Positions 1,934 to 20,659 of a stretch of 22,505 bases of DNA are shown one piece after another; the stretch's first letter is position 1; the number at the start of each line of letters is the position of its first letter. Under the pieces are notes generated by a model. That model was not told the origin of the DNA. It did not search any database and saw nothing but the letters and a program-made list of their open reading frames with translations. This DNA is from a virus (taxonomy: Duplodnaviria; Heunggongvirae; Uroviricota; Caudoviricetes), in the IMG/VR virus record IMGVR_UViG_2681813269_000007; one strand, 5' to 3'. Both the position numbers and the translations under genes were made by a program.

Positions 1934-2899
1934 TTAATTATCAGTAGATTGTTCCTCTAGTAACAACTCAATTCTGCTTAGTATTTCTTTAGATATTTTG
2001 CGGCTATCAATTTTTATAGTTACAAAATTACCTTTATATCTAGCCGTGATCCCTTCCCCATATTTTTTCTCGTCTTTTGTTTTTTCCTCGTCGCCAACCA
2101 GAACAGAGTCAGATAATATTTGTATAATCCGTGAAGCTTCTAAATCCTCGCCGTTTTTTTTAATTGCCAGAAGATGATGAGCAGCATTGCTCATGGCAGC
2201 CATGTTTTTTTTGTAAACCTTAAACAAAGAATCTCCAGCACGAGCTGACAGTTCTCCTGGATGATTGAAGATAGCTAATATATCTTTTGGTAGACCAGCT
2301 GTATTAATACAGCGAGTGATAATATTTCTATCTATATTTTCAGCCTCGGCTAATGCTTTAACGTTACCATCAAAGTCATTTAGCTTGCGTAAGTATCTCT
2401 TTCCTCTTTCGTATGCACTAATAGGCCTATAATCGTTACCAATTTGGGATAACCAATGCATCTGTTCATCGTCGAGATCACCAATTAAGACGCGATAGTC
2501 ACATCCTGTTAATATCGCTGCTTTTCTTCTACGTGAGCCGTCAGCGACTTCAACGATTCCAGATACTTTTCTGGCGAAAGCTGGATTTTGTTGTCCAGAC
2601 GTTAGAAAAGATGGGATTAAATCGGCTAGAGAGGATTCATTTAATAAATCTTGATCGCGTTCATTACCTAGCCATACCATTGTTGCCATTTCAACTTTAT
2701 CTGCGGGAATTGTCTCTAACTTAAAGTTAACATTACGTCCGCATACTGGCAAAGTTATGCTGTTACCGGTTAATGAACTCAGTTGACGTTTTAAATCACC
2801 AACCATAGGTGATACGGGCTGATGTTCAGGGGCATGATGATTATTACTCATAATGCGATTAATATCTGGAGCATTTTTTAGAAGAGAGCGCTGTTTCAT
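1934..2899 (-). CDS. sopB: Partition protein SopB (ParB family, centromere-binding)
   Basis: 321-aa ORF colinear with F-plasmid SopB as I recall it (ITLPVCGR, WxGNERDQ, DLIPSF, PAFxRxVSG, IADGSRRRKAA, DYRVLxGxLDDEQM, GNDYRPxSAYERG, CINTAxLPK, HPGELSAR). Start overlaps the sopA stop. Confidence 0.9.
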   Translation of the reverse strand: MKQRSLLKNAPDINRIMSNNHHAPEHQPVSPMVGDLKRQLSSLTGNSITLPVCGRNVNFKLETIPADKVEMATMVWLGNERDQDLLNESSLADLIPSFLTSGQQNPAFARKVSGIVEVADGSRRRKAAILTGCDYRVLIGDLDDEQMHWLSQIGNDYRPISAYERGKRYLRKLNDFDGNVKALAEAENIDRNIITRCINTAGLPKDILAIFNHPGELSARAGDSLFKVYKKNMAAMSNAAHHLLAIKKNGEDLEASRIIQILSDSVLVGDEEKTKDEKKYGEGITARYKGNFVTIKIDSRKISKEILSRIELLLEEQSTDN

Positions 2900-4065
2900 T
2901 ATTCGTTCTCCCAGCGAGGTTTTATTAGATCATCAAAAATTTCTCGGCAAACAGGGTCCCATATAGAAACAGCATTTCTCCATGCATTCAATGTTGAACG
3001 TTGGTTTGCTGCTTGTTCAAATACTGTTCTCATTTTTATCTGGCCTTTACCTACTTCATCGGTAACGCGTACAACCTGACGTAATACCATTGATCCCCAT
3101 GTATTTCTTATTTGTTCTTCCATCCATCGTGATTGATTCCCTGTAGTGAGACTATATTTAGTCAGAAGTAAGCGAACGGTTGGCTCAAATCCACCTAGGT
3201 CAACGCTTTCCAATAGATCGAGAAGCATTGTGAAAAACTGTAGAACAGAAGCGTAATCAAATAATTCTGCAGGTGTAGCAACAACAATAACGTCAGCGGC
3301 ACAAACAACGTTAATGGTTCCTGTACCGAGGTTCGGAGCACTATCTATAACGATAACATCGTAGTTATCCCAAACTGATTCAATAGCTGCGCGCAGCATA
3401 AGGTGTGGAGGATGAGGCAATTTACCCTGAGCATGATATTGCATGAGATCTGTTTCTATACGATGTAAAGCTAGGCAGCTAGGGATAATGTCTAGCCCAG
3501 GCCAACATGTTGGCTTTATAGCATATTCAGCGTTATCGCGTTCTCCTAAGTAAAATGGCAGTAAAGTATCCTCGGCATGGATATGTAAATCAGGAACATA
3601 ACCGTGATACATAGAGGCCGTGCCTTGAGGATCGTTACCTTCAACCAAAAGAACACGATGACCTTGTAATGCTAACCATTGAGCTTGATGTACCGCAGAC
3701 GATGTTTTATAAACGCCGCCTTTGTGTGACATAACGGCAAGCGCAACAGGGTTTTTATCTTGTGGTCGTTGGTTTGGGTTGCCAAAAACTGCTCGCATAC
3801 TGTTGATTTGATCTATGGTATAACCAGCACGACGTTCAATTCTTCCTCTCATTTCAAAGTCAGGTGCAGGTAAACGCCCGCTCTTCTCAGCATCTCTAAT
3901 TGCTTGAGGAGTTACACCAATTAAATCTGCTACTTCAGTTATACCCCATCGGCGGGTGATACGCCGAGCTTCAGGACTATCATCACCGAATTGAGCGATA
4001 GCAATTGCTTTGGTCATTTCTTGACCTCTCGTAACACAATCTTGCAATAACTTTTTCAAAGACAT
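2899..4065 (-). CDS. sopA: Partition ATPase SopA (ParA family, type Ia with N-terminal HTH extension)
   Basis: 388-aa ORF with GGAGATGA RBS. Deviant Walker A KGGVYKTS, a long N-terminal extension, and the same length as F SopA. Transcribed divergently from telN. Confidence 0.9.
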   Translation of the reverse strand: MSLKKLLQDCVTRGQEMTKAIAIAQFGDDSPEARRITRRWGITEVADLIGVTPQAIRDAEKSGRLPAPDFEMRGRIERRAGYTIDQINSMRAVFGNPNQRPQDKNPVALAVMSHKGGVYKTSSAVHQAQWLALQGHRVLLVEGNDPQGTASMYHGYVPDLHIHAEDTLLPFYLGERDNAEYAIKPTCWPGLDIIPSCLALHRIETDLMQYHAQGKLPHPPHLMLRAAIESVWDNYDVIVIDSAPNLGTGTINVVCAADVIVVATPAELFDYASVLQFFTMLLDLLESVDLGGFEPTVRLLLTKYSLTTGNQSRWMEEQIRNTWGSMVLRQVVRVTDEVGKGQIKMRTVFEQAANQRSTLNAWRNAVSIWDPVCREIFDDLIKPRWENE

Positions 4066-4712: not shown

Positions 4713-6626
4713 ATGAGCAAAGTAAAAATCGGTGAATTAATAAACTCACTTGTTAGCGATGTTGAGTCAATAGATAACTCTGACCGTCCTCAAGGGGAGA
4801 AAACAAAAAAAATAAAGGCTGTTGCATTAAAATTTAAAAATGCATTATTTAATGACAAGCGAAAGTTTAGGGGGAAAGGATTAGAAAAAAGAATTACAGC
4901 CAACACATTCAATGCCTATATGAGCAGGGCCAGAAAACGGTTTGATGATAAACTTCATCATAGCTTTGAAAAAAATATACATCGCCTATCTGAAAAGTAT
5001 CCTTTATATAATGAGGAGCTATTGTCATGGCTTTCTCTACCTGCTGCCGATATTCGCCAGAGAATGTCAGCTTTACAGGCAAAATTAAAATTAATTCTCC
5101 CTCTATCAGAAGATTTATCTAATATCAGAATTGGCGATAACAAAAGTCATAATAAGTTATTGAAATTATCAAATAAATATAAAGAGTGGCAATTCGCCAT
5201 TTCTGATTTAACTAGCGATAACTGGAAAGATAAGCGCGATTATTTATATAAATTACTACAGCAAGGATCTGCCTTACTTGAGGAGTTGAATCAGCTAAAA
5301 GTTAACCATGAGATTCTCTATCATCTTCAACTAAGCCCTGCCGAACGTGCATCTATCCAGCAACGATGGGCGGACGTTCTGCACAATAAGAAACGTAACG
5401 TGGTGGTCATTGATTACCCTAAATATATGCAAGCTATTTACGATATTATAAATAGCCCTGCTACATTAAATAATCTAAACACTCGTTCAGGTATGGCTCC
5501 TTTGGCATTTGCACTTGCTGCATTGTCAGGAAGACGAATGATTGAGATTATGTATCAAGGTACATTTACTGTTTCTGGTAAGTATACCGTTGATTTTTTA
5601 GGCCAAGCTAAAAAAAGAACTTCTGATGATATAACCAGAAAAATATATACATTATGCGAAGCAAAAACATTTGTTTATTTAATAAATGTACTTCGCTCAT
5701 GCCCAGCAGCATCTGATTTTGATGATGTCGTTAAAGGTTATGGAGATAACGATACACGCTCTGAAAACGGACGTATTAATGCCATATTAGCAAAGGCTTT
5801 TAACCCGTGGGTTAAATCATTTTTCAAAGATGACCGCCGTGTTTATAAAGATAGTCGTGCTATTTATGCCCGTATTGCGTATGAAATGTTTTTCCGCGTA
5901 GATCCTCGTTGGAAAAACGTAGATGAAGATGTTTTCTTTATGGAAATTTTAGGCCATGACGATGAAAACACTCAATTACACTATAAGCAATTCAAGCTGG
6001 CCAACTTCTCAAAGACATGGAGGCCAAATACTGGAAACGAAAATACCAGGCTGGAAGCATTGCAGCAGCTTGATGACGAAATGCCTGGATTCGCCAGAGG
6101 AGATGCCGGGGTTCGTCTGCATAACACAGTTAAGCAGCTGGTAGAGCAGGACCCCTCTATAAAAATCACGAACAGCACTCTAAGAGCGTTCAAATTTAGC
6201 CCAACAATGATTAGTCGATACCTGGAATTTGCTGCTGATGCTCTGGGGCAATTTGTTGGCGAAAACGGACAATGGCAACTGAAAATAGATACTCCAGAAA
6301 TCGTTATGCCTGACGAAGAAGAACTGGAAGCAATACCTGAACTGGCGGATGAATTATCAGAGGATGACGATCTGGATGACGACGAAATTGAGATAGAGGA
6401 AGAGGAAGAGGAAGAGGAAGAGGAAGAGGAAGAGAGCGTAGAAGAACAGCAACCGCCTGCACCTTCTTCGCCTGTATCTAAGCCGGTATTTAAGCCGGTG
6501 AGAAATATTGGTGATGGCTCATACGTTGTTGAGTTTCATTATAATGGCCAGAATTATGCGTGGTCCGGCAGTGCAAACAGCCCCATGTCAGCAATGCAGT
6601 TAGCATGGCTGACATATTTCGGTTAA
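4713..6626 (+). CDS. telN: Protelomerase TelN (telomere resolvase, tyrosine-recombinase-like)
   Basis: 637-aa ORF with AGGAGAGG RBS. The N-terminus MSKVKIGELIN... and overall colinearity match N15 TelN (about 630 aa) as I recall it. An acidic C-terminal tract precedes the conserved tail. Confidence 0.92.
   Translation: MSKVKIGELINSLVSDVESIDNSDRPQGEKTKKIKAVALKFKNALFNDKRKFRGKGLEKRITANTFNAYMSRARKRFDDKLHHSFEKNIHRLSEKYPLYNEELLSWLSLPAADIRQRMSALQAKLKLILPLSEDLSNIRIGDNKSHNKLLKLSNKYKEWQFAISDLTSDNWKDKRDYLYKLLQQGSALLEELNQLKVNHEILYHLQLSPAERASIQQRWADVLHNKKRNVVVIDYPKYMQAIYDIINSPATLNNLNTRSGMAPLAFALAALSGRRMIEIMYQGTFTVSGKYTVDFLGQAKKRTSDDITRKIYTLCEAKTFVYLINVLRSCPAASDFDDVVKGYGDNDTRSENGRINAILAKAFNPWVKSFFKDDRRVYKDSRAIYARIAYEMFFRVDPRWKNVDEDVFFMEILGHDDENTQLHYKQFKLANFSKTWRPNTGNENTRLEALQQLDDEMPGFARGDAGVRLHNTVKQLVEQDPSIKITNSTLRAFKFSPTMISRYLEFAADALGQFVGENGQWQLKIDTPEIVMPDEEELEAIPELADELSEDDDLDDDEIEIEEEEEEEEEEEEESVEEQQPPAPSSPVSKPVFKPVRNIGDGSYVVEFHYNGQNYAWSGSANSPMSAMQLAWLTYFG
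6396..6431 (+). repeat. Perfect (GAGGAA)x6 in-frame hexanucleotide tandem repeat inside telN
   Basis: Six exact tandem GAGGAA units encode the poly-Glu run in the TelN C-terminal acidic linker. Confidence 0.9.
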
Positions 6627-7810: not shown

Positions 7811-8137
7811 GCAGCCACCTCGCGCACCGGAATACGGGCAGACAATACCAGGACAAACCGGCTGGCGAACTGGCGACGAGCTTCCCGTTCAGATGACGCG
7901 ATAGTGGAAAGATGATGAATGTGGGACTTTTTGTCTGTGCGAACGACTGCCGCAAATTTGAATTTGAACATGGTATGCACTCCGTTTTATTGGTCGTGCT
8001 ACCTCCAGAGTTGCGAATCTCTTTATTGGTGGTAGCCCAGGCGGGGTTCGCAATACCGGTAAACGAAGAAACCGGCCCGACCGAAGTCAGCCCCACCTGA
8101 GCCACCATAATTCGGATATGCGCAGGTCTATACACAT

Positions 8138-8213
8138 AAAAAAACACGCTGGCGCGTGTTGTGCGCTTCGTTTTGCCAGGATTGCGAAGTCCCGACTGCG
8201 GGATTTACCGCAG
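8138..8213 (-). ncRNA. Candidate small regulatory RNA (c4/cA-like) upstream of the antirepressor operon
   Basis: On the minus strand: -35 TTGACG (8250-8245), -10 TAAAGT (8226-8221), then about 75 nt ending in an intrinsic terminator (ACACGC-GCCA-GCGTGT plus U7, 8159-8138). The predicted RNA has a 5' hairpin CUGCGG-UAAAUC-CCGCAG. No convincing ORF in the region. Confidence 0.3.
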
Positions 8214-8263
8214 CGAGGTGACTTTACCTCCAAAACGACGCACACGTCAATAATTTGCAAAGA

Positions 8264-8300
8264 CATTTTACCCCGTGACCAGTCACGGGGACAGGTGTTT
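8264..8300. terminator. Hairpin separating the lipoprotein cargo block from the anti-immunity promoter region
   Basis: CCCCGTGAC-ca-GTCACGGGG lies just after the lipoprotein stop (8352, minus strand) and is followed on the plus strand by ACAGGTGTTTTTAT. Confidence 0.4.
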
Positions 8301-10166: not shown

Positions 10167-13100
10167 TTACCCATAGAAAGCGCCCTGCTCTTCGTAGCTG
10201 CATGGGCTATTCCCGGTAATGTATTCACGTAACCGCCGCAGTTCATTGCTGGATAAGTGATCCATGAACTCTGTGAGGTACAGAGATGCAAACGTCATAG
10301 CTATGCTGGCTGATGACCATGATGACATAGTGGCCAGCTCCTCACCGGAAAGCGCACTCATCGCCCAGGACTCAGGTACAACCACTGGCAACACAGCCAA
10401 AGCCTCAGAAATTACTGAATGAGGGGCGTTTTGAACCTGCTCGTTTGTGGATCGCGTTTTATCATCCATATATATATTGAGATCCAAATCGCGATCCATT
10501 TCGATGGCGGTCTTCTCGGCTTTACGCGTTTTCAGGGTTAGGCCATCTTTCTGACGCTGAGCAAGAATATCCAGCATAAATGCCGCTGATTCAGGCTCAA
10601 CAAAACGCAAGGTTGGACGCTTATCGCCGTCTCTGCCGCGACGTTTACCTGTTTTAAGGCCAAGAGAGTCGCAAATGTTTTTAAACAACGCTTCCGGCAC
10701 TTTAGGCTTCCCTTTTGGCGTCATAAAACCACCAATGTGCAGAACGTTATTCAACAGGTCACGGCGTTCGGCTGTCATGAGGTTATCTCGAGCAAATTTG
10801 AGACGCTCCTGAGTCGCCTCGCCGGTCATAGTCTCAGGGTTGATACCGCAGTCGATAAAGTACTGCCGGAGAGTTGCTGATTTAAGCGCATAGAAACCGC
10901 GCGCCCCGACTTCAACAGTAGGAGTAGCTTTTACCTTGTGATCGATTATTCCAGGGAATTTAGTTTTAAAGACATCATCAGCCTGCTCGCGAGTCATCGC
11001 GGTCACTACAAAATATTGCCACTGTCCCGCCTGACGGTATGCGTAGGTAAAATTGATGGCTGCTTCTTCCCGGTCGTAACGACGAGCTGTTACCTCATCT
11101 AAAAGCATTGTTTCATAGCGGCGAACTTTGTCTCGAGCACCATCGAAATAGAATTTCAGCGTGCCTTCTTCAACCGGTAGTTTCAGTTCGTTTTCAATAT
11201 CCCAGCGGACAAGTTTTGCCTGTTCTTCAAGCGTCAGCGCGCGTTTTTTTAGCAGTTCTTCACGCTCTGATTCTTGTGGAGTTTCTGTATTGAGATGCAG
11301 ATCCAGTGTCTGTTCCCACACAATATCCCGCGCTTCTTTACGCAGCTCTTTACCGATATCATTCGCAGCATAATCGGTGGCCAGCGGCGATACCTTATAA
11401 CCGTCGCTGTGCATGATGCAGATCATGTTGCTGGCGTAGTCGTTACGCGCAGTCGCTTCAATAGCGGCTGCTTTAATTTTCATCCTGGTAAAGTCGGTAT
11501 TGGCCACCCCCATTGATATACGGTCGCCATCGAAAACGACATCCGTCAGTTCACCGTTCATACCTGCGGTAGCAAGCAATGCCTGGGCGAATGCTCGTTC
11601 TATTTTTTGCGGGTCAGTTTCACGTTTTGCACGAGCTTTATCAAAGCCGATAATAAATTCTTTTGCTGTACGGTCGCGGCGTAGCATTTGCACTGCGTCG
11701 CTGGGTACAACTTCACCACAGAACATGCCGAAATGACGGTCAAAATGTTTTTGCTCAATCGACACGCCGGATGAAATAGACGGGCTATAAATCAGGCCGT
11801 CGTATTTTTTGACCATCTTTTTCGGTTGATTGGTAAATGCTTCAACTTCTGGCTCTGGTTTGTTTTTCTGGTTTACACACAGAAATTTCTTACCAGGAAA
11901 ATGCATTCTCAGGGTGGCTGTCACATCTTCTGCAAAGGTGGAGCTGTCGGTGGCCAACATGATTTTTTCGCCATCCGATACAGCTTTCACCACCTCGGTC
12001 ATGATGCGATCTTTTTCTGTATAAAAAACCCGGATTGGCTCACCTGTTTCGCGGTTGCGAACATCAACAGGTAATTCAATTACGTGGATCTGCAGCCATG
12101 CCGGTAAACCTAGTTCTTCACGGCGTTTCATAGCCAGTTCAGCCAGGTCAACCAGCAGATCGTTCGCATCAGCATCCACCATGATTGGGTGTTGTTCCGT
12201 TCTGGCCAGCGCGTCAATTAGCGTATTGAATACAGCCACCGGGTTTTCCATAGCCCGACCGGAAAGAACGGCACGTAGCCCTTGTGTGGCCTCGTCAAAG
12301 CCAAAATAGTCGTGCTGGCGCATCAACGGTTGCCAGCAGTTTTTAACAATCGAGTTTATGCAGATGGTCAGTTTACTGGCGTATGGAGCCATTTCCTGAT
12401 AGCCAGGGTCCTGATAGTGCAGGATATCGGCTTTTACACCTTTTCCTTCTGTCATCATTTCCCACAGGCCACCAATAAGGGAGACACGGTGAGCAACAGA
12501 GATACCACGTTCTGAGCTATGCATTAATGGTCGTAACAATCCTGTAGATTTGCCGGAACCCATACCAGCACGGACGATGACTATCCCTTGTAGTGATTGC
12601 ACGTACTTCAGGACATCATCGGTCATTACCGAAGTTTCAAAACGCTTATAGGTGATATGTTGAGGGCGTTTATTGGGATCAGTTATGCGTTCGCTGAAAG
12701 AGCGCGGAGCCTGGGCAATACGGCACTTTTTATTCAGGCGACGGGCAATGTGGTCTTTTACCGTAGCGCGATAGATATTTTCCAGTCCCATTTCACGCAG
12801 AACGATGCAGAACATGTTAAATAAATCTGACGGACTGTTAGGAACCGGACAGGTTAGCATGCCTATATCCACCGCTCTCAGCAGCTCTTTGGCAAAAGTA
12901 CGACGGTTATCCCGCTTAATTGTCTTCAGGCGGTTGAGCGTCAGAGATAGCAAATCAGTACCGGTTTTCAGGCGGTTTGCTGTTGTAAATAGTTGACGTG
13001 CGGTTTCACGAAGTCCACGTAGTTTGTGCAGGTCGTTGAAGTCACTGCACTCCATTTGCGGATCGTCTTCAAAAGTTGGATAGACGCAGCGGACATCGTT

Positions 13101-14162
13101 GAATTTCGATAAGATTTCATAGCCAGTCCGCAGGCCGGTATTCCCTTTTCCTTCTGTGGCAGATTTCCGGTCATTATCCAGTGCGCAGGTGATTTTTGCC
13201 GCCGGGTACATGTTTACCAGTTGTTCCACAACATGAACCATGTTGTTAGCGGATACAGCGACAACCACAGCGTCAAAGCGTTTATATTTTTTCGTGGCAA
13301 GCCAGATGGATGCACCAGTAGCAAAACCTTCTGTAACAGCGATGTTTTGCGCCCCTTTCAGCTCACCGATAACAAAGCAGGCACCGACGAAATCGCCGCT
13401 GGTTACTGCGCTGGTCTGGTATTTCCCACCTTGTTTGTCGATTCGCTGCCAACCCACAATACGACCATCGTAACGACCGTCCAGGTGAGCCAGAGGGATA
13501 GCCATATATGTGGTTGGCCCCCGGCTCCATTTCGCACTGTCGTGACTGGTCACGCGACGCACATCACATGAACTAAAAACGTCACGAATACCTTTTTTAA
13601 TCGCATATGGCCATGAGCCGTCTTCAGCCGGAGCATGTTCCCACGCGCTGTGGAATGCCAGCCATCCCAGCAAACGTTCATGGTCCATTTGGTTGTTTTT
13701 CAGGTCATTAATTCGTTTTTGTTCTTCACGGCGACGACGTGCTTCGGCCTGACGTTCTATTCTTTCCCGTTCTTCTTCCGGTTGTGCGACCACGGTCGCA
13801 TTATTCCGTTGTTGCTCACGGCGATATTCAGAAAACAGGAAGGAGAAACCGCTCCATGAGCCAGCATCGCTGCCTTTATGGACGAAGTTAATGAACGGGT
13901 AATCAATCCCTTTGCTGTGTTCCAGCCGGGAGTAAATTTCTACGCGTCCTTTCAGGCTCTTTTCGAGAGCTTCTGGAGATGTTTTATTGTATGAAGAGTA
14001 ACGCTCAACTCCCCCGCGAGGGTTGAGTTGGATGTTGTCGGAACAGGCAGGCCAGTTGATACCAGCCATCTGTGCCAGCTCGGTTAGTTCATCCCGTGCT
14101 GCTTCAATTAGCGAGAACGGATCGCTGCCAAAGCGATCCGCATAGAAATCGTTTAATGTCAT
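10167..14162 (-). CDS. repA: Replication protein RepA (multidomain primase-helicase)
   Basis: 1331-aa ORF, close to the roughly 1324 aa I recall for N15 RepA. Walker A GMGSGKST in the central helicase region. Same orientation and position relative to cB as in N15. Confidence 0.92.
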   Translation of the reverse strand: MTLNDFYADRFGSDPFSLIEAARDELTELAQMAGINWPACSDNIQLNPRGGVERYSSYNKTSPEALEKSLKGRVEIYSRLEHSKGIDYPFINFVHKGSDAGSWSGFSFLFSEYRREQQRNNATVVAQPEEERERIERQAEARRRREEQKRINDLKNNQMDHERLLGWLAFHSAWEHAPAEDGSWPYAIKKGIRDVFSSCDVRRVTSHDSAKWSRGPTTYMAIPLAHLDGRYDGRIVGWQRIDKQGGKYQTSAVTSGDFVGACFVIGELKGAQNIAVTEGFATGASIWLATKKYKRFDAVVVAVSANNMVHVVEQLVNMYPAAKITCALDNDRKSATEGKGNTGLRTGYEILSKFNDVRCVYPTFEDDPQMECSDFNDLHKLRGLRETARQLFTTANRLKTGTDLLSLTLNRLKTIKRDNRRTFAKELLRAVDIGMLTCPVPNSPSDLFNMFCIVLREMGLENIYRATVKDHIARRLNKKCRIAQAPRSFSERITDPNKRPQHITYKRFETSVMTDDVLKYVQSLQGIVIVRAGMGSGKSTGLLRPLMHSSERGISVAHRVSLIGGLWEMMTEGKGVKADILHYQDPGYQEMAPYASKLTICINSIVKNCWQPLMRQHDYFGFDEATQGLRAVLSGRAMENPVAVFNTLIDALARTEQHPIMVDADANDLLVDLAELAMKRREELGLPAWLQIHVIELPVDVRNRETGEPIRVFYTEKDRIMTEVVKAVSDGEKIMLATDSSTFAEDVTATLRMHFPGKKFLCVNQKNKPEPEVEAFTNQPKKMVKKYDGLIYSPSISSGVSIEQKHFDRHFGMFCGEVVPSDAVQMLRRDRTAKEFIIGFDKARAKRETDPQKIERAFAQALLATAGMNGELTDVVFDGDRISMGVANTDFTRMKIKAAAIEATARNDYASNMICIMHSDGYKVSPLATDYAANDIGKELRKEARDIVWEQTLDLHLNTETPQESEREELLKKRALTLEEQAKLVRWDIENELKLPVEEGTLKFYFDGARDKVRRYETMLLDEVTARRYDREEAAINFTYAYRQAGQWQYFVVTAMTREQADDVFKTKFPGIIDHKVKATPTVEVGARGFYALKSATLRQYFIDCGINPETMTGEATQERLKFARDNLMTAERRDLLNNVLHIGGFMTPKGKPKVPEALFKNICDSLGLKTGKRRGRDGDKRPTLRFVEPESAAFMLDILAQRQKDGLTLKTRKAEKTAIEMDRDLDLNIYMDDKTRSTNEQVQNAPHSVISEALAVLPVVVPESWAMSALSGEELATMSSWSSASIAMTFASLYLTEFMDHLSSNELRRLREYITGNSPCSYEEQGAFYG
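13783..13802. other. sopC-like centromere palindrome, copy 1 (inside repA coding sequence)
   Basis: TGTGCGACC-AC-GGTCGCATT. Positions 13785-13800 (TGCGACC-AC-GGTCGCA) are a perfect 7+2+7 inverted repeat with the same GACC-AC-GGTC core as the F sopC SopB-binding site. Confidence 0.6.
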
Positions 14163-14407: not shown

Positions 14408-15004
14408 TCATCTACCCTCAACCATGAATGATTTGATCGTTCCGACTATTTGGTGAACAAATTCAAGATCGCTTTTCCTGAAGATGGCTCGTTGTGAGTT
14501 TGTTCCATCCAGATAGTAATTTTCATCATCAAAACGGGCCAGGCGCTGGATAGTGATATTTCCTGCAGTATCACGAACCAGAACATCCTCGCCGGGGACC
14601 AGTTCCAGCGCAGAATCGACCAGGAGAAAATCGCCTGGCTGATAGTTTCCCTGCGTAAGATTGCTGATAGTTAACGCATACACAGTATTGCGCTGGCTGA
14701 TGAATGGCAGGAATCGCTCAGTATTTGGAACCTGTCCCGGCTTCCATTCTTCATCAGGCCCACTTTCAGTTGTGCCAATAATAGGAATGCGATCAGGGTC
14801 ATATTCTGTCCCATATAGCACCCAATGCACTGGCTTGCGTAAGCACTTAGCCAGGGCAATACCTATCTCCAGTGACGGCATTACGTCGCCACGTTCTAAG
14901 TTTTGGACGCCTGCTATAGAGATATCGACAGCCTCAGCAACTTCTCGCAACGTCAGCTTCATCTCTAAACGGCGTGCTTTCAGTCGTTCGCCTCGTGTTT
15001 TCAT
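14408..15004 (-). CDS. cB: Prophage repressor CB (CI-like, N-terminal HTH, C-terminal S24-like domain)
   Basis: 198-aa ORF with an XRE-type HTH (LTLREVAEAVDISIAGVQNLERG) and a LexA/CI-like C-terminal fold (GDFLLVD ... ITIQRL). Divergent from cro across an operator region. Confidence 0.85.
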   Translation of the reverse strand: MKTRGERLKARRLEMKLTLREVAEAVDISIAGVQNLERGDVMPSLEIGIALAKCLRKPVHWVLYGTEYDPDRIPIIGTTESGPDEEWKPGQVPNTERFLPFISQRNTVYALTISNLTQGNYQPGDFLLVDSALELVPGEDVLVRDTAGNITIQRLARFDDENYYLDGTNSQRAIFRKSDLEFVHQIVGTIKSFMVEGR

Positions 15005-15095: not shown

Positions 15096-15317
15096 ATGAA
15101 ACCAGAAGAACTTATTCGCCACTTTGGCAGTGTTGAAAAAGCAGCGGCAGGGGTAGGTGTAACACCCGGAGCTGTTTACCAATGGTTAACCGCTGGAGAG
15201 ATTCCTTCATTGCGGCAAAGCGATATTGAAGTTCGTACTGCTTACAAGCTGAAGAGTGACTTTACAACTCGGCGGGTAAAGCAGTCGATTAAGGAGAGTC
15301 GTAAGCGTGGAGCTTGA
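15096..15317 (+). CDS. cro: Cro-like repressor
   Basis: 73 aa from ATG 15096 (MKPEELIRHFGSVEKAAAGVGVTPGAVYQWL..., an HTH). The ORF track extends to a TTG at 15069 that lies inside the operator, so the shorter start is preferred. Confidence 0.7.
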   Translation: MKPEELIRHFGSVEKAAAGVGVTPGAVYQWLTAGEIPSLRQSDIEVRTAYKLKSDFTTRRVKQSIKESRKRGA

Positions 15318-16017
15318 GTATATACGCAGCTGCGTCTCTACGGCATTGGCTGATGTTCATTATCGCCAGCGTGGCATTCTGGAGGTCCAGCTTGAGCAGA
15401 TGCGTCTCGGTAGATCAGGACGGTTTAACAATAAACCAGTCCGGTCAATCAGTGTGGGGGATGATAACTCATACGAAGTGTCCGTTCCCGCTGAGCCGGT
15501 TAGATTCCACCAAGGGAAAACATTTAAACAATCATCAATATTGCTCACTGATATTGATTTTCAGAGCGCCAGCTGGCGCAGGGCTATTGGTCAGTTGAAT
15601 AACGAGGAATCAGCCTGGCTTTATTATTGCTACGGATGCAAGCCTGACTACAACAATGATGTGATTGTTTGTCAGTGGTTATGGCTTGATTTTCTGGTTG
15701 CTCATTCTGGGGGCGGCTTTAAAAAAATGAAGGCCTCCACGAAAAAAGCCATGCGGAAATTGATTTATTACGCGGCACAGCAGGTTAAATCAGAACTTAC
15801 GTGTGCTGAGGCAGTTGATGAGAGAGAACAGGACAGGCATCTGAGTTTTCTACTGAATATATCTATTGATAGCTGGAGACAAGATTATAAAGAACGCTGG
15901 CTTTTAATTAAGTCGCGATGTCTGAGCTTAAATCGAACCGCATTATTAAATGCGGCGGAGAAGCGCAGTGAAATCATCAAACGCCATCGGGCAGGAAGTG
16001 CCATTCTGCCTTTGTAA
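15307..16017 (+). CDS. Hypothetical protein in the position of a Q-like late antiterminator
   Basis: 236-aa ORF with GTG start and AAGGAG RBS, overlapping the cro 3' end. Function inferred from gene order only. Confidence 0.35.
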   Translation: MELEYIRSCVSTALADVHYRQRGILEVQLEQMRLGRSGRFNNKPVRSISVGDDNSYEVSVPAEPVRFHQGKTFKQSSILLTDIDFQSASWRRAIGQLNNEESAWLYYCYGCKPDYNNDVIVCQWLWLDFLVAHSGGGFKKMKASTKKAMRKLIYYAAQQVKSELTCAEAVDEREQDRHLSFLLNISIDSWRQDYKERWLLIKSRCLSLNRTALLNAAEKRSEIIKRHRAGSAILPL

Positions 16018-16022
16018 ACAAG

Positions 16023-16270
16023 TTATGTTCAGGAAACCGTCGAAGCCAGAATTAAGGTATTCGGGGGTAAGAAATGAATATGTTATCTGGTGTCCAACTT
16101 GTGGTTACAGGACACGACCAGATAGTAATAAGCAGTCTGTAATTGCCGATTGGTATTTATCAAATCAGCCAGGTAATAAGCATATAGAAAATCTTTGGAT
16201 TAAGCGTTACTTGGAAATCAGCGAGGGTGCGACCACGGTCGCACAAGAAAATGAAAATAACGCCATTTAA
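16023..16270 (+). CDS. Small zinc-ribbon protein (possible Lar-type restriction-alleviation protein)
   Basis: 82 aa from ATG 16023 with a CPTCG motif in YVIWCPTCGYRTRPD. No clear RBS; the start is uncertain and the ORF track offers an alternative at 15950. Confidence 0.35.
16227..16244. other. sopC-like centromere palindrome, copy 2
   Basis: GTGCGACC-AC-GGTCGCAC, a perfect 8+2+8 inverted repeat at the junction of two small ORFs. Confidence 0.6.
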
Positions 16271-18472: not shown

Positions 18473-18799
18473 ATGGCGCTGACAGCTGCAGAACGGCAAA
18501 GGAGACGCAGGGAACGGTTGAAGAAGGAAGGCACATCAAGACGGGACTGGATTCTGGAACCTGACGAGCTACGTATGTTGGGGGAAATTTGTGTATTGCG
18601 TAGACCGGGACGAGTTCCATATTCAGAGAATGAAGTCATCGGTCTGCTGATCAGGAAAAACTATAAGGAGCTGCAGAAGCAGCTATCTACTACTTGCTCG
18701 CGATGTGGTCAGAAAATGCCTGTTTCAGAATGTATTTTTGATGGTGAAGGCTCATGTCACCTTACAACTACGAGGCTGAAACTTGTGCTCAAAGTGTGA
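18473..18799 (+). CDS. Hypothetical basic protein with Cys cluster
   Basis: 108-aa ORF with AGGAGG RBS. Arg-rich N-terminus (ERQRRRRERLKKEG) and a CSRCG...C...C motif. Confidence 0.6.
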   Translation: MALTAAERQRRRRERLKKEGTSRRDWILEPDELRMLGEICVLRRPGRVPYSENEVIGLLIRKNYKELQKQLSTTCSRCGQKMPVSECIFDGEGSCHLTTTRLKLVLKV

Positions 18800-18998
18800 C
18801 TGGTCACGGAATGATAAATAAACAAAAAGGCATAGTTTTTGAAATGATGAGAAAACGAAGCGAAAAGAGTTTTTCTTATGGTGATGATGGGCTTCTGTAG
18901 GTGGTTGAGTGAGGCGTAGGAAGAGAACATAAGTATCGGACTACAAAGCTATTAACCCTGTTAATCCATTGAAAGTTGGCTATAAAATTTGAGTTTTA

Positions 18999-19018
18999 CC
19001 CTGTAATTTTATACAGTA
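18999..19018. promoter_or_regulatory. LexA (SOS) box
   Basis: CCCTGTAATTTTATACAGTA is a canonical CTGT-N8-ACAG with AT-rich spacer, 23 bp upstream of the ATG at 19041. It is the only such match I found in the window. Confidence 0.6.
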
Positions 19019-19040: not shown

Positions 19041-19259
19041 ATGGTATTAGATTCAATGACTGAAGCATCTGTATCAACTCTTGAAGAACTCGGATCAAAC
19101 CTAAAAGACATCGACGCCGTTTTGGATCTGGTTAGCGTTGCTCTGGCTTCTCCCGAAGCTAGCTTGCATCTTGGCGAGATTTCACGGCTTGTTAGTATGT
19201 CGCGGGAGATTGCTCAGAATTGCCAACAAGCGATTGCTGTGGAGTGTTTACATCATTGA
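19041..19259 (+). CDS. Small acidic protein under the LexA box (candidate SOS-inducible antirepressor)
   Basis: 72-aa ORF, acidic and predicted helical, immediately downstream of the LexA box and convergent with the toxin-antitoxin pair. Confidence 0.55.
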   Translation: MVLDSMTEASVSTLEELGSNLKDIDAVLDLVSVALASPEASLHLGEISRLVSMSREIAQNCQQAIAVECLHH

Positions 19260-20299: not shown

Positions 20300-20527
20300 A
20301 TGAATATTAATGAAATTCGTGGAAATATGACTGAAGCGGCCCTGAGTGTGGAATGTGTTATGCGTGGATACCCACGCATTTCCCTGAAAGAGTTAAGCGA
20401 AGCCTGTTTTTTGAGTCAAGCTGCCGTTGAATTTATCATCGAACAGATGATCTGTTTTGGGGTTGCAAAGCGTAGCGGATCTGGTCGATATTCTTTGACC
20501 GATGAATATAAGCAGGCAACTTTCTAA
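20300..20527 (+). CDS. Hypothetical small protein (possible DNA-binding)
   Basis: 75-aa ORF with AGAGAGG RBS. Confidence 0.6.
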   Translation: MNINEIRGNMTEAALSVECVMRGYPRISLKELSEACFLSQAAVEFIIEQMICFGVAKRSGSGRYSLTDEYKQATF

Positions 20528-20530
20528 AAG

Positions 20531-20552
20531 CTGTGCGACCACGGTCGCACAG
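20531..20552. other. sopC-like centromere palindrome, copy 3 (longest perfect copy)
   Basis: CTGTGCGACC-AC-GGTCGCACAG, a perfect 10+2+10 inverted repeat starting 4 nt after the stop of the preceding gene. Confidence 0.65.
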
Positions 20553-20635
20553 CACAAAAACGAAAAAGCTTGGCAAAATGACGGTTTTTAGTTATTGTTT
20601 TGTTAAGTTGGGTTTTTTGTACCCAACAGCCAACA

Positions 20636-20659
20636 AGCCGCCTTTATGGCGGTTTTTTT
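20636..20659 (+). terminator. Intrinsic terminator downstream of the small-gene block
   Basis: GCCGCC-tttat-GGCGG followed by T7. Confidence 0.5.

Follow-up and report, generated by a model that had tools for sequence, protein, structure and literature searches.

A predicted SopB centromere site within the repA gene of an N15-like linear phage-plasmid

The element and its boxes

Does the palindrome inside this repA gene serve as a centromere site for the partition protein SopB, and is it kept for its DNA or for the peptide that it encodes? The sequence at 13783-13802 of the window, the whole 22,505-nucleotide stretch analysed here, is tgTGCGACCACGGTCGCAtt. It contains a perfect 16-bp palindrome at 13785-13800, with 7-bp arms TGCGACC/GGTCGCA and a central AC. 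An earlier note on this DNA had placed a palindrome in this span, about 120 codons from the start of repA, and both the repeat and its placing are correct. The palindrome (the box) lies inside a 1331-codon minus-strand ORF (10167..14162, repA), ~363 nt into the gene. On the coding strand it runs from the third base of codon 121 through codon 126, where the reading is AAT GCG ACC GTG GTC GCA (N A T V V A).

By its sequence, the window belongs to an N15-like linear phage-plasmid of E. coli and represents the maintenance and immunity arm of a linear plasmid-prophage. Its gene set by Pfam includes sopA, sopB, telN, repA, a CB-like repressor and Q, and telN marks the replicon as a linear plasmid-prophage. 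The repA region shares 98.4% identity with Escherichia phage PhiR46_1, 94.9% with YDC107_1 and 74-78% with N15, phiKO2 and Klebsiella/Enterobacter N15-like elements, and the first 863 nt of the gene are 100% identical in the E. coli plasmid CP056845. Compared with N15, repA is ~78% identical in nucleotides and RepA 83% identical in amino acids (first 400 residues); the 5' region of repA is ~76% identical in nucleotides to that of phiKO2. The features are as follows.

1934..2899, minus strand: sopB, ParB-family centromere-binding protein, presumed binder of the boxes (Pfam SoPB_HTH, 87 bits; 75% identity to N15 SopB)
2899..4065, minus strand: sopA, ParA-type partition ATPase (Pfam AAA_31 and CbiA; 93% identity to N15 SopA)
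4713..6626, plus strand: telN, protelomerase (Pfam TelK/ResT domains; 82.5% identity to N15 TelN)
10167..14162, minus strand: repA, 1331-aa primase-helicase replication protein, N15 gp37 homologue, host of copy 1 (Pfam Toprim_3 and Herpes_ori_bp; Toprim and origin-binding helicase domains)
13785..13800, unstranded: predicted SopB box copy 1, TGCGACC-AC-GGTCGCA, in repA codons 121-126; counterpart of N15 IR1
14408..15004, minus strand: CB-like repressor (Pfam)
15307..16017, plus strand: antiterminator Q (Pfam)
16228..16243, unstranded: predicted SopB box copy 2; counterpart of N15 IR2, with flanks resembling IR2
20534..20549, unstranded: predicted SopB box copy 3; counterpart of N15 IR3, the site that immediately precedes the late promoter

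All three copies (13785, 16228 and 20534) have the same full 16-mer. Copy 2 follows the Q gene by ~210 bp and precedes the start of a small ORF by 7 bp; a site is annotated at this place in phiKO2 too. Copy 3 precedes a -35-like TTGGCA by ~22 bp and stands in front of the methylase gene, in the same geometry as the annotations in N15 and phiKO2. The boxes are single, dispersed at 13.8, 16.2 and 20.5 kb (2.4 and 4.3 kb apart), and stand more than 9 kb from sopB (sopAB at 1.9-4.1 kb). CP056845, a near-identical complete plasmid and the closest complete relative, has five boxes, two of them beyond the window's span.

Other control elements are found elsewhere in the window. A C4 antisense RNA (82 bits) and isrK (53 bits) match in tandem at 8025-8214 on the minus strand (Rfam), which marks an anti-repressor control region of the immA/immI type, like those of P1 and N15. 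A strong IS009 sRNA match (Rfam, 220 bits) occupies 1669-1867 on the plus strand, within the tail-fibre-assembly region and just past sopB at its 3' end. A perfect LexA-box-like CTGT-N8-ACAG at 19001-19016 (CTGTAATTTTATACAG) stands upstream of a 72-aa ORF (19041..19259), an arrangement consistent with an SOS-controlled antirepressor like N15 antC. The function of N15 antC was reportedly described by Mardanov and Ravin in 2007.

Counterparts in N15 and its relatives

The repA palindrome is the counterpart of N15 centromere site IR1 in both position and sequence. Dispersed SopB-binding inverted repeats IR1-IR4 in N15 were reportedly described by Ravin and Lane in 1999 and by Grigoriev and Lobocka in 2001. 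The N15 genome carries four boxes, at 33483 (in repA, at the same codons as in the window), 35934 (following Q), 41128 (immediately before the annotated late-promoter -35) and 45565, and these are IR1-IR4. The oligonucleotides that rebuild the "N15 centromere" carry the flanks of the N15 genome boxes, and the IR1 flanks are repA sequence (PMC7205306). The N15 centromere site is located within repA, and plasmids that carry the site are stabilised by SopAB (PMC2847241). SopB binding and SopAB-dependent stabilisation or incompatibility are reported for N15 (PMC2847241, PMC7205306).

The window box and IR1 share a 14-bp core, GCGACCACGGTCGC, in repA codons 122-126, in a linear plasmid-prophage with sopAB, telN and repA, and both elements have one sister site beyond Q (IR2) and another before the late promoter (IR3). 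However, the window box is a perfect 16-mer, while IR1 as deposited for N15 carries a mismatch at its outer end (AGCGACC...), and CP056845 has five boxes rather than the four of N15. The deposited IR1 (N15 33480-33495) reads AGCGACCACGGTCGCA, with the outer-arm mismatch arising because codon 126 of N15 is GCT; the IR1 oligonucleotide in PMC7205306 has TGCGACC, unlike the deposited sequence. The phiKO2 site in gene 35 has the identical 16-mer at homologous repA codons, but it is annotated by similarity only and its host is Klebsiella. It is said to have been described by Casjens et al. in 2004 as a 'putative plasmid partitioning site'. The GenBank record of phiKO2 (AY374448) holds four annotations of that kind, at places parallel to N15, the first of them in its repA homologue. 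A centromere site inside repA is already known, shown experimentally in N15 and annotated in phiKO2, and the window element is an uncharacterised N15 relative.

The cognate sopA-sopB operon of the window encodes an N15-specificity helix-turn-helix. The recognition helix of its SopB, ALAEAENIDRNIITRC, is of the N15 type (DRN) and not of the F/PY54 type (SRK): the window has IDRNII, N15 has IDRNIV, and PY54 SpyB has ISRKII. Among loci where a box could be paired with its sopB, DRN helices go with TGCGACC, and SRK helices and one DRK helix go with TGGGACC. Each half-site of the F centromere differs from that of N15 by one nucleotide, and the specificity determinants have been mapped to this helix (PMC2910045); the covariation of box and helix agrees with that mapping. 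For elements with mixed-type boxes (TGCGACC..GGTCACA) and for the relative L088 (63% RepA identity), the helix-to-box pairing is only suggestive, because SopB and SopA scans did not recover their partner sopB/sopA contigs with certainty.

The earlier note's view of a centromere-like SopB site inside repA is borne out by the counterparts in N15 (IR1) and phiKO2 and by the cognate sopAB in the window. We consider it very probable that the window box is an N15-type SopB centromere site, of a type Ia ParABS system, with SopB binding carried over from N15. Its sequence, copy number, positional homology, DNA-level selection, sopAB and SopB helix come from the present analysis; SopB binding and stabilisation come from the N15 literature.

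F sopC is similar in having a 16-bp inverted repeat with 7-bp arms, a central purine-pyrimidine dinucleotide and a homologous SopB helix-turn-helix. However, the F arms are TGGGACC, and the window boxes depart from the F consensus TGGGACCACGGTCCCA by a C for G at the third base of each arm, the specificity base. The F boxes also stand in 43-bp tandem repeats adjoining sopB, an array that the window lacks, its boxes being single and dispersed.

The comparison was extended to ~80 repA loci from IMG/VR and GTDB contigs together with N15, phiKO2, PY54 and a Salmonella plasmid. The scan of genome contigs gave five loci, and viral contigs supplied the diversity; a protein search with a 400-aa RepA query gave nine mostly fragmentary matches, of which three distant ones were informative. 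These loci comprise 63 distinct 5' repA sequences with amino-acid identity down to 43%. A perfect GACCNNGGTC core occupies the homologous codons in 59 of the 63. Two of the remaining four (L102 and L105) have one mismatch, and two (L087 and L088) have no box at this position, so the box is not indispensable.

PY54 and the Yersinia/Salmonella telomere phage-plasmids (SpyAB) resemble the window in having a Sop-type box at the same repA codons and boxes dispersed genome-wide. They differ in that their boxes are F-type (TGGGACC), with 8-11 per sequence examined, and their SopB helix is SRK, not DRN. PY54-like and mixed-type relatives have a second Sop box in repA, at nt 619-631 and in another reading frame; this site is absent from the N15 clade, including the window. 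The second box, TGG/TGC GAC CNN GGT CNC A, encodes W/C-D-R/H-G-H/P/R, and its amino acids track the box type; in PY54-like elements it lies at nt 625-631 and encodes W-D-R/H-G-H/P. The paired repA boxes are located as follows.

L030 (PY54): 30987 and 31243
L033 (Salmonella CP054718): 20375 and 20631
L029: 4782 and 5050

The Salmonella record, 118.8 kb and deposited as 'circular', contains the repA 5' region twice (20375-20640 and 33924-34189), inverted and with mirror-image Sop boxes, which looks like a head-to-head assembly or a replication intermediate of a linear telomere plasmid. TGNGACC boxes are absent from L088, which has in their stead three copies of AAGTGTGGCCATGGCCACACTT with a GGCC core, at 2165-2186, 7875 and 16688, and a TGGGGCCGTGGCCCCA palindrome at the second repA position (repA nt 634; 10634-10653). 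The L088 boxes suggest a further switch of centromere specificity.

A second palindrome family, (C)CGTGAC-NN-GTCACG(G), is also present. It has three exact copies in the window against 0.45 expected:

8275-8286, CGTGAC-NN-GTCACG palindrome
13542-13553, CGTGAC-NN-GTCACG palindrome
18796-18807, CGTGAC-NN-GTCACG palindrome

One copy falls in repA codons 204-207 (GTG ACC AGT CAC), where synonymous positions are invariant among N15-clade homologues. Another directly precedes a -10-like TAAAAT in front of the isrK/C4 anti-repressor RNA region, and a further one is 245 bp upstream of the LexA-box/antC-like ORF. N15 has the palindrome at the same three relative positions (28550, 33237 and 39269). This three-position pattern recurs in most N15-clade loci with enough sequence on either side and also in L085 and L088, and shorter contigs show one or two copies. 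The family is essentially absent from PY54-like loci, with one stray copy far upstream in L036. Its assignment as a CB operator was rejected, and a literature search for the sequence returned irrelevant primer matches only.

The location inside repA

The palindrome would be one of several dispersed parS-type centromere sites. A SopB dimer (ParB family) would bind the 16-bp box through its helix-turn-helix and nucleate a partition complex, and the SopA ATPase would then position the plasmid copies such that each daughter cell receives the low-copy prophage. In N15, replication starts within repA (PMC2847241). Since the origin lies in repA, the box is most likely located there through its linkage to the replicon: with replicon and box in one gene, every replication-competent derivative would keep a centromere.

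The earlier note had proposed that a site in this place couples assembly of the partition complex to repA transcription. SopB bound at the box would spread or act as a roadblock and so lower or tune repA transcription, connecting partition with replication and copy number. At ~363 nt into the gene, the box is close enough for ParB-type spreading to reach the promoter region near 14.2-14.3 kb, and excess SopB or ParB is known to silence genes in F and P1. In N15, the transcriptional role documented for Sop reportedly concerns late genes and the other IR sites, near Q and the late promoter, according to Ravin, Rech and Lane in 2008. The box has held its position in repA while its specificity changed, and a second repA box is added in PY54-like and mixed-type elements. 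However, inheritance together with centromere selection explains the positional conservation equally well, and L087 and L088 manage without a box here. A promoter and terminator scan around the box found nothing promoter-like or terminator-like on the repA strand, and as far as is known, spreading of ParB generally affects transcription weakly when the protein is at its native level. Coupling of partition to repA transcription is undocumented in the accessible literature. As a function added to partition, we regard it as unlikely.

A broader proposal is more doubtful still. The repA-internal box may be an ancestral, near-universal centromere of the N15/PY54 group. It would have stayed at one codon position while SopB specificity changed at least three times, because loading of SopB in repA does more than partition. 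The gene itself might then be a platform for embedded regulatory palindromes, since the CGTGAC-NN-GTCACG family also has a conserved repA copy. If this were true, SopB loading could tune RepA synthesis or origin use, which would be a true coupling of replication and partition.

DNA site and encoded peptide

A palindrome in coding sequence might also have arisen by chance, or be the target of a restriction-modification enzyme, a protelomerase or an origin element. The GACCNNGGTC core occurs three times in the window (13788, 16231 and 20537) against 0.17-0.18 expected by chance, and none of 100 shuffles gave three copies. The box is one base per arm away from the F sopC consensus, has no resemblance to AT-rich CB operators and matches no RNA family in Rfam. 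Chance and other binding proteins are therefore rejected as highly improbable, on the shuffles, the likeness to sopC and the unlikeness to CB operators.

The predicted SopB site has left its mark on the codons. Third-position entropy was calculated for 31 representatives with less than 92% nucleotide identity, over 102 columns dominated by fourfold-degenerate codons. The median is 1.73 bits. The four lowest values of the 102 belong to codons 125, 122, 123 and 124 (0.22, 0.42, 0.42 and 0.64 bits, respectively), and codon 126 ranks eighth. The amino acid at codon 121 is hypervariable (N, R, H, G, C, T, S), yet in 20 of 22 sequences the codon ends in T, which is the base that opens the box. Comparison of the palindrome with synonymous variation in repA homologues was the check that the earlier note had proposed, and the palindrome passes it, with 59 of 63 homologues keeping the box and codons 122-125 the most constrained. 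The pattern supports a functional DNA site at repA codons 121-126, under selection at the DNA level.

The encoded peptide follows the type of box. With an N15-type box (TGCGACC..GGTCGCA) the peptide is A-T-x-V-A, and with an F/PY54-type box (TGGGACC..GGTCCCA, the consensus of F sopC) it is G-T-x-V-P. A mixed box (TGCGACC..GGTCACA) gives A-T-V-V-T, and one box of the form TGGGACC..GGTCTCA gives G-T-T-V-S. The amino acids seen at residue 124 are V, T, A and M (GTG, ACG, GCG, ATG), which are exactly the four purine-pyrimidine-G codons; F SopB requires a purine-pyrimidine central dinucleotide, and the codons of residue 124 match this. The earlier note had the palindrome constrained by the codons that it encodes, and this relation is inverted. 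Because the peptide switches with the box (ATVVA to GTTVP or ATVVT), the aligned sequences indicate that the DNA site dictates the codons and not the reverse.

The protein appears to accommodate this. An AlphaFold (AF2) model of RepA residues 1-400, built from a six-sequence alignment, is of moderate confidence (mean pLDDT 69); in it, residues 122-127 form a loop with pLDDT below 50 between helix 105-120 and the long helix 129-175. This segment is likely tolerant of an imposed sequence, and the box would have been written into a structurally tolerant, loop-coding part of repA, where the DNA requirement fixes the local peptide. The converse, that a conserved A-T-V-V-A motif under protein selection is encoded palindromically by chance, can cite the near invariance of T123 and V125 in its favor, but it is rejected as scarcely credible, since it is contradicted by synonymous third positions that are the most constrained of the first 400 codons and by flanking residues that follow the box arms (A..A, G..P, A..T, G..S), and it also faces the restriction of residue 124 to purine-pyrimidine-G codons, the low-confidence loop and the two further copies of the same 16-mer in non-coding DNA of the window.

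The discovery value is small, as papers on N15 have covered the repA centromere site from 1999-2001 onwards and N15-derived linear cloning vectors (pJAZZ-type) make use of it. Pillet et al. 2011 makes no mention of N15, PY54 or phiKO2, the P840/PY54 paper has nothing on the boxes, and in a 2024 preprint on ParB on linear DNA, N15 serves only for linearising F. The positional retention through specificity switches, the covariation of codons and box, and the second repA box at nt 619-631 may be undescribed. These comparative details refine a known system and do not change it. The locus offers a clear case from nature in which a DNA site for protein binding overrides the amino-acid sequence of an essential gene. 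The box, the encoded peptide and the SopB recognition helix change together, which could help specialists in partition specificity and incompatibility.
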